NCBI GenBank assembly: GCA_965227515.1
Contig: CBDDFZ010000001.1
Coordinates: 1,792,001-1,856,000 of the forward strand
DNA: 64,000 nucleotides
Source of the DNA: Alphaproteobacteria bacterium
GTDB lineage: Bacteria > Pseudomonadota > Alphaproteobacteria > CALKHQ01
Direction of reading: 5' to 3'
A program made the position numbers and the translations under genes. The notes under the pieces were generated by a model. That model did no database searches. It worked only from the letters and a program-made list of their open reading frames with translations, and was not told the origin of the DNA. Shown piece by piece: positions 604 to 2,099 of the stretch (positions within the stretch are counted from its first letter, which is position 1; each line of letters starts with the position of its first letter).

Positions 604-758
604 CCTATAGGCTACGGAGCCTGCATCGCCCTCGGTCCCGATACTTCTTCACGTCAGACTGGCCGAGGTTCGCTGGGGACTGTCAAACCCTTCATTGTCA
701 TCCTTGGCCGGAGCCCAACGTCACGTTGGGCGCAGCGCCGAGGATCTTCCGTGTTTGG

Positions 759-764
759 TGTCAA
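759..764 (-). promoter_or_regulatory. -35 box TTGACA in the IS110 right end (half of the circle-junction promoter)
   Basis: TTGACA overlaps the transposase stop; after circularisation it lies 17 nt from CATGTT at the left end (1890-1895). Confidence 0.65.
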
Positions 765-1729
765 GCGGCGTGTTTCCAGGGTTTGTTGTCTCGGGCGATT
801 GCGTTGAGGATGACGAGCATTTTTCGCATGACGGCGACGAGGGCGACCTTTGGCGGCTTGGCGTATTCGGTGGTGAGGCGTTGGTAGAAGTCGCGCAGGA
901 TGGGGTTGTGGGCGATGGCGCATCTTGCGCCGTTGAACAGCACCCGTCGCACGCCGGGCCGGCCGTGTCCGGTGGTGGCGTGGTAGGTATGTTTGCCGCT
1001 CTGGCGGGTTTGCGGGGCGAGACCGACGAGGGCTGCGATCTGCTTTGGCCCCAGGCGTCCAAGTTCGGGCAGTTCGCCGAGCAGGGTGTAGACGGTGATC
1101 GGGCCGGCCCCTTTAAGCGTTCTCAGGTTTGCGGCACGTTGGCTGAGCGCCCGATCGCCTGCAATGTGCTGGTCGATGGCGTGTTCGATCTGGGCGATGG
1201 ACTGGCGCAGGAGGGCGATGGTGGCTTCCAGGCTGTCGCGCACGACAGCGCCGTCGGCATGCTCCTGGCGGCAACGCTCGGCCTGCAGCAGATCGACGAG
1301 CTGGCGCCGACGCACCACCATCTCGCGCAGCGCCGGATCGCCCTCGACCATGGCGCCGAGCCCGCGACGGGCGAGTTCGTTGGCGGCGAAGTCGGCCAGC
1401 AGGCGCGCGTCGATGCGGTCGGTCTTGGCCCGCACCCCACGCTGGCGGCGATAGGCGACAACCTCGTTGGAATGCACTTGCGCGAACGGCAGCCCGGCCT
1501 CGGCCAGGCAGCGCCGCAACATGCGCTCGTACCCACCGGTCGGCTCGAACGCCACCAGCCCGATGCGCGCCGGCACCAGTGTCGCCAGCCAGGTCTCGAT
1601 CGCCGAGTGCTGATTATCAATCCGCACGGCCGACCCCTCACCGTCGATGACGATGTCGAGCCAGCCCTTCGAGACGTCCACACCAATGTAGAGCTTGTCG
1701 GACAATACCACCTCCGTCATGGTCAGCAT
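761..1729 (-). CDS. IS110 family transposase / bridge recombinase
   Basis: RuvC-like DEDD residues (IGVDVSK, AFEPTG, KTDRID) and C-terminal [11 protein letters not shown] serine motif; likely start ATG 1729 or 1720 rather than 1903. Confidence 0.95.
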
Positions 1730-1734
1730 CTGGT

Positions 1735-1885
1735 CTGCACGCCGGATTGCATGCGGGCGAAAAGCCCATACTTCCGTTCGCGTGTACGACCGCGACGCCG
1801 GCGGGTCCGAGATCCTCACGGTCGCATAGACCAATCCATTACTCGGAGTGCCCGTCGGCGTCCCCTCCCTACCAAGAAGGGAGAA
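1735..1885 (-). ncRNA. Predicted IS110 bridge RNA (5' hairpin + target-binding loop + donor-binding loop)
   Basis: Stems 1865-1870/1878-1883, 1794-1805/1851-1862, 1806-1811/1842-1847, 1820-1823/1829-1832, 1738-1742/1780-1784 and 1755-1758/1764-1767; loop guides AATGGAT, GAGGAT, ACGGAAG and CATGCAAT match target and donor; RNA ends approximate. Confidence 0.85.
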
Positions 1886-2099
1886 ACCAAACATGCAATC
1901 CATTCCACCGTTCGCGCGATGCCTTGAATGGATCCTCGACGCGGCGCGCGGAATAGTTTCCGGGCGCGCCGGTCAAGGATGACAAGGGTGTTGGTGAGGG
2001 GGCGCAGACACACGGCACCGACACAGGTCAGGAACCTGTGCGCGGCGCTCTAAGCGCTTGCACGAGTTCCACCCATAGTCGCCCGACCATATGCCCCAA

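Follow-up and report, generated by a model that had tools for sequence, protein, structure and literature searches.

The question raised by this locus is how an insertion sequence (IS) came to stand at one exact base inside a repeated hairpin. The DNA concerned is a 64,000-nucleotide stretch of an alphaproteobacterial genome (the window, G000:C1:1792001-1856000), and the genome comprises two contigs, C1 and C2, of 4.07 and 1.45 Mb with 66.6% G+C. An IS110-family element of 1154 bp occupies 746..1899 on the minus strand of the window and splits one repetitive extragenic palindrome (REP) unit of an inverted hairpin pair exactly between the AT that closes its stem and its CCA tail. It is highly probable that 746-1899 is an intact IS110-group IS and that a bridge RNA, encoded in its 179-nt left end, directs its recombinase.

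The left junction of the element reads ...GCCGAGGAT(745)|CTTCC and the right junction ...GCAAT(1899)|CCATTC, and in-silico excision of 746-1899 produces GCCGAGG-AT-CCATTC. The core dinucleotide AT stands at both ends (744-745 and 1898-1899) and is present once in the empty allele. Since the base C after the core is also common to both junctions, the cut can be drawn anywhere over ATC, and excisions from 744-1897 through 747-1900 yield the identical product. The IS ends, ATTGCATG... and ...CACGGAAG, are unrelated to each other and thus form no terminal inverted repeats, and target duplication is absent beyond the core. A TTGACA hexamer at 759..764 on the minus strand faces outward at the right end, 15 nt short of the IS terminus, and overlaps the stop codon of the recombinase gene. 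It could provide the -35 box of a circle-junction promoter, and CTTGAC is found 15-16 nt from the right end in seven lineages (this IS, L031, L033, L034, L036, L045, and L047). A promoter scan of the integrated element returned 0 sigma-70-like sites. The element would presumably pass through a circular intermediate, in which a promoter formed at the junction could serve the RNA.

The recombinase gene (761..1720, minus strand) encodes a protein of 319 aa containing both IS110 Pfam domains, PF01548 (E 1.4e-12) and PF02371 (E 9.8e-18), each above its cut-off. The protein aligns over its full length with the IS621 chain 8wt6_A (E 7.8e-23, ~25-30% identity). The DEDD motif and catalytic serine residues of IS621 are named in the available text of the structure paper (Hiraizumi et al. 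2024, PMC11208158), and D15, E59, D101, D104, and S241 of the present protein align opposite them. The same five residues are invariant in 5 orthologues. In addition, a REP hairpin lies directly downstream of the transposase gene in nine lineages, where it could serve as the 3' hairpin of the transcript.

The predicted bridge RNA (179 nt, 1721..1899, minus strand) folds with a minimum free energy of -82.1 kcal/mol (z -3.17), and a consensus fold was obtained over 16 orthologues. The fold consists of a 5' hairpin followed by two stem-internal loop-stem modules, each with an internal loop; the guide coordinates given here were counted by hand from this predicted fold. The loop of the first module carries UAAUGGAU on its 5' side and UGAGGAU on its 3' side, and is the predicted target-binding loop (1794..1862, minus strand); within it, positions 1840-1834 form the left target guide AAUGGAU and positions 1817-1812 the right one, GAGGAU. 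The corresponding target, taken in the IS orientation, is GGAATGG-AT-CCTCGGC. AAUGGAU is identical to the top strand AATGG+AT over seven contiguous bases, and GAGGAU is the complement of AT+CCTC over six. The target loop thus matches AATGG-AT-CCTC on both strands, core included. According to the available text on IS621 (PMC11208160), its left guide corresponds to the top strand of the left target plus core, and its right guide to the complement of the core plus right target; the target loop of this element follows the same rule. The predicted donor-binding loop (1732..1791, minus strand) contains ACGGAAG at 1777-1771 and CAUGCAAU at 1753-1746. ACGGAAG corresponds to the right-end bases preceding the core, as the right end has ACGGAAG directly before AT, and 8/8 bases of the right donor guide CAUGCAAU, the core among them, are complementary to AT+TGCATG at the left end.

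The repeat that received the element can be read on both sides of it. The left REP unit, from tag to stem end (695..745, plus strand), has a TTGTC tag at 695-699, the stem arm ATCCTTGGCC, a long variable interior, the stem arm GCCGAGG, and AT at 744-745, and its CCA tail has been displaced by the IS to 1900-1902. The tail and the spacer of the pair cover 1900..1926 (plus strand), with the palindrome TCGCGCGA at 1912-1919. The right REP unit (1929..1985, minus strand) is inverted with respect to the left one and reads on the plus strand TGG, AT, the stem arm CCTCGAC, a long interior, the stem arm GTCAAGG, AT, and GACAA. The restored pair is therefore TTGTC-ATCCTTGGCC...GCCGAGGAT-CCA, a 24-nt spacer with TCGCGCGA, and TGG-ATCCTCGAC...GTCAAGGAT-GACAA. 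The genome contains 10 other inverted pairs that are intact and have a conserved spacer, and this IS-less site conforms to their pattern. An earlier note on this DNA had claimed that deletion of the element restores a continuous palindrome and that the insertion lies at the base of a hairpin, and both statements agree with the junctions above. It had also pointed to a second, unoccupied and nearly identical target at 1925-1938, which indeed reads TGAATGGATCCTCG; an exact target AATGG-AT-CCTC, read from the sequence, lies on the partner unit at 1927..1937 (plus strand). The related site that the note quoted at 44193-44204, CATGGGTCCTCG, is likewise present and belongs to a REP unit of another stem subfamily (GGGTCC, not GGATCC). 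It is part of an inverted pair of short 28-nt units at 44047..44223 (44047-44074, minus strand; 44196-44223, plus strand), which represent the GC and GT stem subfamilies and are not exact targets.

The target is nearly confined to such repeats across the genome. The 11-mer AATGGATCCTC occurs 48 times, whereas base composition predicts 0.98 and a second-order Markov model ~1.15 occurrences. REP units, recognised by a matching 3' stem arm followed by GAC within 110 nt, contain 47/48 of these occurrences, and an inverted partner unit is found within 130 nt in 41/48 cases and within 190 nt in 42/48. The spacers of these pairs measure 27 nt or ~119 nt; pairs with the ~119-nt spacer often combine units of different stem-foot variants. 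A looser pattern detects 300 units genome-wide, and 231/300 are 28 nt long with the form GG-RY-CCTCGSS-ACAAG-SSCGAGG-RY-GAC. By their RY dinucleotide at the foot of the stem, the units divide into AT (85), GT/AC (109), GC (88), and AC/GT (12), and this pair is complementary in 294/300. Only the AT variant of the stem foot matches the core of the IS.

These repeats agree with the superfamily of CGTC/TGTC-tagged REPs that was described by Di Nocera et al. 2013. The units terminate in GACG/GACA, the reverse complement of CGTC/TGTC, and those of the window carry TTGTC and GACAA; the tail stands as TGG before the stem in the orientation used. The loop of the 231/300 short units is ACAAG. The interiors of the two window units and of the other long units measure ~26-45 nt, exceeding the 4-5-nt loop of CGTC-tagged REPs, and the two window units are for this reason called long-interior variants of the class. 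In REP terms, the closing AT corresponds to the core of the IS, the CCA tail, taken on the opposite strand, to the left target, and the host-specific stem to the right target. Two genes with a Y1-transposase-like domain (PF01797) are present at C1:2017088-2017375 and C1:1603908-1604246 (35.7 and 23.9 bits), with no REP unit within 1.2 kb of either; a link of these repeats to a REP-associated tyrosine transposase (RAYT) was rejected on this ground.

The only other copy of the element in the genome, at C1:1350250-1351403, is 97.7% identical over 1154/1154 nt. Its flanks read GCCGAGGAT|IS|CCAT, which is the same junction in another unit of the same repeat. None of the 26 differences between the two copies falls in the guides, and two fall in the left end (IS positions 13 and 179). 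As a separate observation, 15/26 cluster inside the gene at IS positions 288-296 and 359-381 in sense orientation, which looks like patchy recombination and not like even divergence. The element may still be active in this strain.

An empty allele was sought in the Logan contigs of four public runs (X2, X3, X14, and X15), compared with window positions 1-3200. Record 15 of X2 (524 nt, depth 5.1) aligns to 311-710 and 1898-1987, and record 22 of X3 (369 nt, depth 4.8) to 466-710 and 1898-1987, and the IS is absent from both. The 34 other letters between the aligned parts end in GCCGAGG and are followed directly by AT-CCATTCC, so that the junction in both runs is the predicted GCCGAGG-AT-CCATTC. 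Over 1898-1987, the right flank does not differ from the empty allele by a single letter. X2 and X3 also carry the IS (records 16 and 23, respectively), and the loose ends of the IS in X2 are the flanks of the second-copy locus. The depth of the IS contigs exceeds that of the flanks in X2 and X3; contig depth is not copy number, and nothing is drawn from it. X14 and X15 yielded fragments only, with no contig spanning the site. The earlier note had proposed to align the flanks of other copies, to count target sites inside and outside REP-like repeats, and to look for an empty allele; each of these comparisons has come out in its favour.

A DNA search of 40 related genomes found no full-length copy outside the source genome, and of 400 further genomes from the class, 3 contained relatives at E <= 1e-60. 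Single-protein scans gave one partial relative (45%) in a collection of genome contigs and none in metagenome contigs, and in a plasmid collection, 2223 records all stayed below 60% identity. A profile scan of a species-level genome collection provided ~20 loci with 54-63% aa identity in Xanthobacter, Methylopila, Hansschlegelia, Aliidongia, Dongiaceae, Caulobacteraceae, and several uncultured alphaproteobacteria, as well as in one bin labelled Longimicrobiales. Sixteen left ends align to one two-loop structure of 32 pairs with 97.7% of cells paired, compared with 31-44% in slid-partner controls. Compensatory change is found in 7/32 pairs, and 0/500 shuffles reached as high a value. The variable columns of this alignment are the two sides of the target loop, and the donor loop and IS ends are conserved; where ACGGNAG varies among A, T, and G, the variation follows the right end.

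The guides of these orthologues change together with their flanks. L076 has the left guide GACGUGGAU at the left flank TCGTGG-AT and the right guide GGGCAU at the right flank AT-GCCC, while L029 has CAUGGGU at CATGG-GT and GGCGAC at GT-CGCC. On the right side, GACCAU faces AT-GGTC in L044 and GGGUAU faces AT-ACCC in L038. The longest run shared by a lineage's own left flank and loop is 6-8 in 16/16 lineages, compared with cross-pair means of 3.4-5.7. Own matches on the right measure 6-7 in 7/10 lineages, 4 in one (with one mismatch), and 3 in two related lineages; in the latter two, GGUCAU is opposite ATGGCC and a G.U position interrupts the run. The pattern TGGAT-N7-ACAAG-N7-ATGAC occurs 18, 1, 3, 44, and 41 times in five host genomes, compared with 0 for the reversed control, and the copies of L076 and L048 have as their right flank the stem ATGCCCGAG, which is the commonest one in the two Methylopila genomes. 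The earlier note held that the element is programmed against a REP-like doublet. The programming is supported, as the target loop matches both strands and the orthologues covary. The target, however, is the tail/stem junction of a single unit and not the doublet as such: what the guides define is ~10-11 bp at the base of a REP unit, whether that unit stands alone or in a pair.

In the proposed mechanism, the target loop would pair with both strands of AATGG-AT-CCTC, a sequence that in CGTC/TGTC REPs of the AT subfamily comprises the CCA tail (as TGG), the AT pair closing the stem, and the stem bases that come first. The donor loop would pair with the joined IS ends CACGGAAG-AT-TGCATG. Recombination at the common AT core would then put the IS between tail and stem with no duplication, and would leave a whole hairpin just downstream of the transposase gene. 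Because REPs are numerous and extragenic, the element would have dozens of equivalent and probably harmless landing sites, and the extragenic nature of REPs suggests that insertion into them may provide a safe harbour.

Several points weigh against this explanation. The bridge RNA is known as a predicted structure that is presumed to be transcribed, and an Rfam search of window positions 1-4000 gave no match with E up to 1. The left donor guide matches seven bases and is then followed by an extra U before AU, so that pairing of the donor core needs a one-base bulge. The -10 box that would form at the circle junction, CATGTT, is weak when read by hand, with 3/6 positions matching. The left target of the second copy matches 6/7 bases. 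Recent activity in this strain is made less certain by the occupancy of only 2 of ~50 sites and by the 26 differences between the copies. The orthologue lineages are kin, and their counts overstate independence. Finally, the interior of the left hairpin (711-736) is wholly unlike that of the empty allele (~27 nt), while the tag/stem and stem/tail parts around it are identical between the strains.

Since the interior of the left hairpin differs entirely, the locus has undergone more than a simple insertion. The 50 nt at 696-745, including the interior 711-736, are identical to a unit at C2:282921(-) on the other replicon, which points to unit-wise replacement of REP interiors. It could accordingly be proposed that the IS arrived here by homologous recombination or gene conversion between REP units and brought adjacent REP sequence with it, as both the foreign interior in comparison with X2 and X3 and its identical counterpart on C2 would be accounted for. 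However, the junction is the one predicted by the guides, the right flank agrees letter for letter with the empty allele, and REP interiors may turn over independently of the IS. Arrival by gene conversion is thus considered improbable; moreover, it concerns the history of this copy and is compatible with RNA-guided targeting by the family.

A second alternative is that the recombinase recognises the REP hairpin as a shape or as a protein-binding site and that the guide matches are incidental. The right flank opens a hairpin of the form AT-stem-loop-stem-AT-GAC(R) in 9/11 lineages with a readable right flank, which places the insertion at a hairpin foot as this alternative would have it; no such hairpin is present in the right flank of L036. 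In ISPpu10, the target stem-loop adds specificity beyond base pairing, according to the available text of a preprint (10.64898/2026.03.19.712850). On the other hand, the guides vary with the target across lineages although the proteins are still 54-63% identical. L031/L032, which are from the same genome as L022, L025, and L026, use the same AT|CCA junction in opposite orientation with swapped guide content: the left guide CUCCGGGGAU reads the stem (left flank CCGGGG-AT), and the right guide CUGGAU reads the tail side (right flank AT-CCAG/CCTG). Such a swap is not predicted by a protein that reads the hairpin alone. Because the AT core reads the same on both strands, either orientation is possible, and the palindromic core together with the inverted L031/L032 shows that insertion orientation is set by the guides alone. 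Recognition of the hairpin in place of the guides is therefore very unlikely, and a structural layer may exist on top of RNA guidance.

If the REP halves were the inverted ends of the element itself, the mobile unit would be the whole of 695-1985, and the flanks are indeed mutually inverted repeats; this idea retains next to no probability, as it is contradicted by the empty allele, which keeps both REP units, by the 10 intact pairs that lack the IS, by the other spacer and partner unit of the second copy, and by more than 300 units as against 2 IS copies. Chance insertion anywhere in intergenic space that REPs merely happen to occupy could draw on there being just two copies in the genome, and is equally negligible because both copies stand at the same base of the same motif, orthologues in other genera do likewise, and the guides match the site.

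Beyond the RNA-guided insertion of this single element, a broader proposal can be made, for which the odds are rather poor at present. There may be a clade of bridge-RNA IS110 elements specialised on CGTC-REPs across alphaproteobacterial genera, in which the left guide would be fixed on two nearly invariant traits of the superfamily, the CCA tail and the closing AT (UGG-AU), and the right guide retuned to the stem of the host. The hairpin that always starts at the core would itself be required, whether to gate recombination by its structure or to lend the transposase transcript a 3' hairpin. If this is true, the host range of these IS110 elements would depend on guide content, and CGTC REPs, for which an enzyme partner is not known, would acquire one that is open to experiment.

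The genome also contains a second IS110-family element with 39% aa identity, in four copies (C1:85241-86167, C1:2520699-2521625, C1:3321422-3322348, and C2:1183204-1184130). It lies inside a different long palindromic repeat, ...GCNCCRGCCC|IS|CTCTCCCCCACCCGGCCACCCA-loop-TGGGTGGCCGGGTGGGGGAGAGGGCTGG, and the 15-mer CTCTCCCCCACCCGG is present 148 times genome-wide. In the target loop of this second element, GGGAGAG, the complement of CTCTCCC, lies on the 3' side.

A known bridge-RNA member of the family is IS621 of E. coli (Durrant et al. 2024, PMC11208160; Hiraizumi et al. 2024, PMC11208158). As far as the available text of these papers goes, the two systems share a two-domain recombinase with DEDD and Ser residues, a bridge RNA (here predicted) upstream of the gene with target and donor loops and the core in each guide (an extra U precedes it in the left donor guide here), a target of ~11 bp in REPs, and a -35 box (here a candidate) in the right end. 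They differ in that the proteins are only ~25-30% identical, the core is AT here, which is its own reverse complement, and CT in IS621, and the guide lengths are 5+2 and 2+4 here compared with 7+2 and 2+2 in IS621. The host repeat is a CGTC-tagged alphaproteobacterial REP and not the E. coli REP, in agreement with the different repeat class proposed in the earlier note. The present locus is a clean natural case of bridge-RNA targeting beyond the enterobacterial and pseudomonad examples, and it combines an empty allele, a second copy, and an orthologue series with covarying guide and target. For annotation, it explains the location of these IS copies inside repeats and predicts ~48 further landing sites in the genome.

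ISPpu10 and ISPpu9 of Pseudomonas putida reside in gammaproteobacterial REPs of the GTAG type. IS110-family elements in REPs have been on record since IS621, and ISPa11, ISPpu9, ISPpu10, and ISRm19 were added by Tobes & Pareja 2006 (PMC1525189), in the part of that paper available. Like the present element, ISPpu10/ISPpu9 have all copies at one REP position and a conserved stem-loop in the target (PMC1525189; 10.64898/2026.03.19.712850), and many targets form convergent pairs, 40.8% there and 41/48 with an inverted partner here. In contrast, the accessible text of these sources puts the stem-loop on the left-target side, whereas the hairpin here starts at the core on the right-target side, and function was tested in those systems, whereas the present case is based on sequence. 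ISRm19 of Sinorhizobium meliloti 1021, with 4/4 copies in REPs (PMC1525189, available text), resembles the present element as an IS110-family member in REPs of an alphaproteobacterium. Two IS110-family copies on pSymB, presumably ISRm19, encode a protein ~30% identical to the present one and are located in a different palindrome, ...CACCT|TCTCCCCGCAAGCGGGGAGAAGG, which lacks a CGTC tag and a CCA tail.

The CGTC-tagged REPs are described, in the available text of PMC3733652, as mostly alphaproteobacterial, with CGTC or often TGTC at the terminus, stems of 8-9 bp in which complementary AT nearly always comes first, a 4-5 nt loop, a 3-nt tail that is mostly CCA, and a predominance of inverted dimers; that text associates no transposase gene with them, and IS110 has 0 occurrences in the paper. 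A full-text literature search for CGTC, IS110, and REP jointly returned no paper on the subject by title, and the supplements of the 2024 and 2006 papers may list the clade or its targets. The short 28-nt units of this genome fit the published description, as available, on every point. The window units agree with it in tag, stem foot, and tail, and differ in their structured interiors of 26-45 nt compared with a 5-nt loop. Unlike in the description, an AT closing pair is found in 85/300 units here, and the other 215 have GT/AC, GC, or AC/GT. IS110 targeting of REPs is thus already known, including an alphaproteobacterial case (ISRm19, reported 2006), and the repeat class is catalogued. What is new is a modest addition, namely the pairing of an IS110 bridge RNA with CGTC REPs and the pattern, seen across the clade, in which one guide is kept while the other is retuned, and it connects the two literatures of IS110 bridge RNAs and CGTC-tagged REPs.

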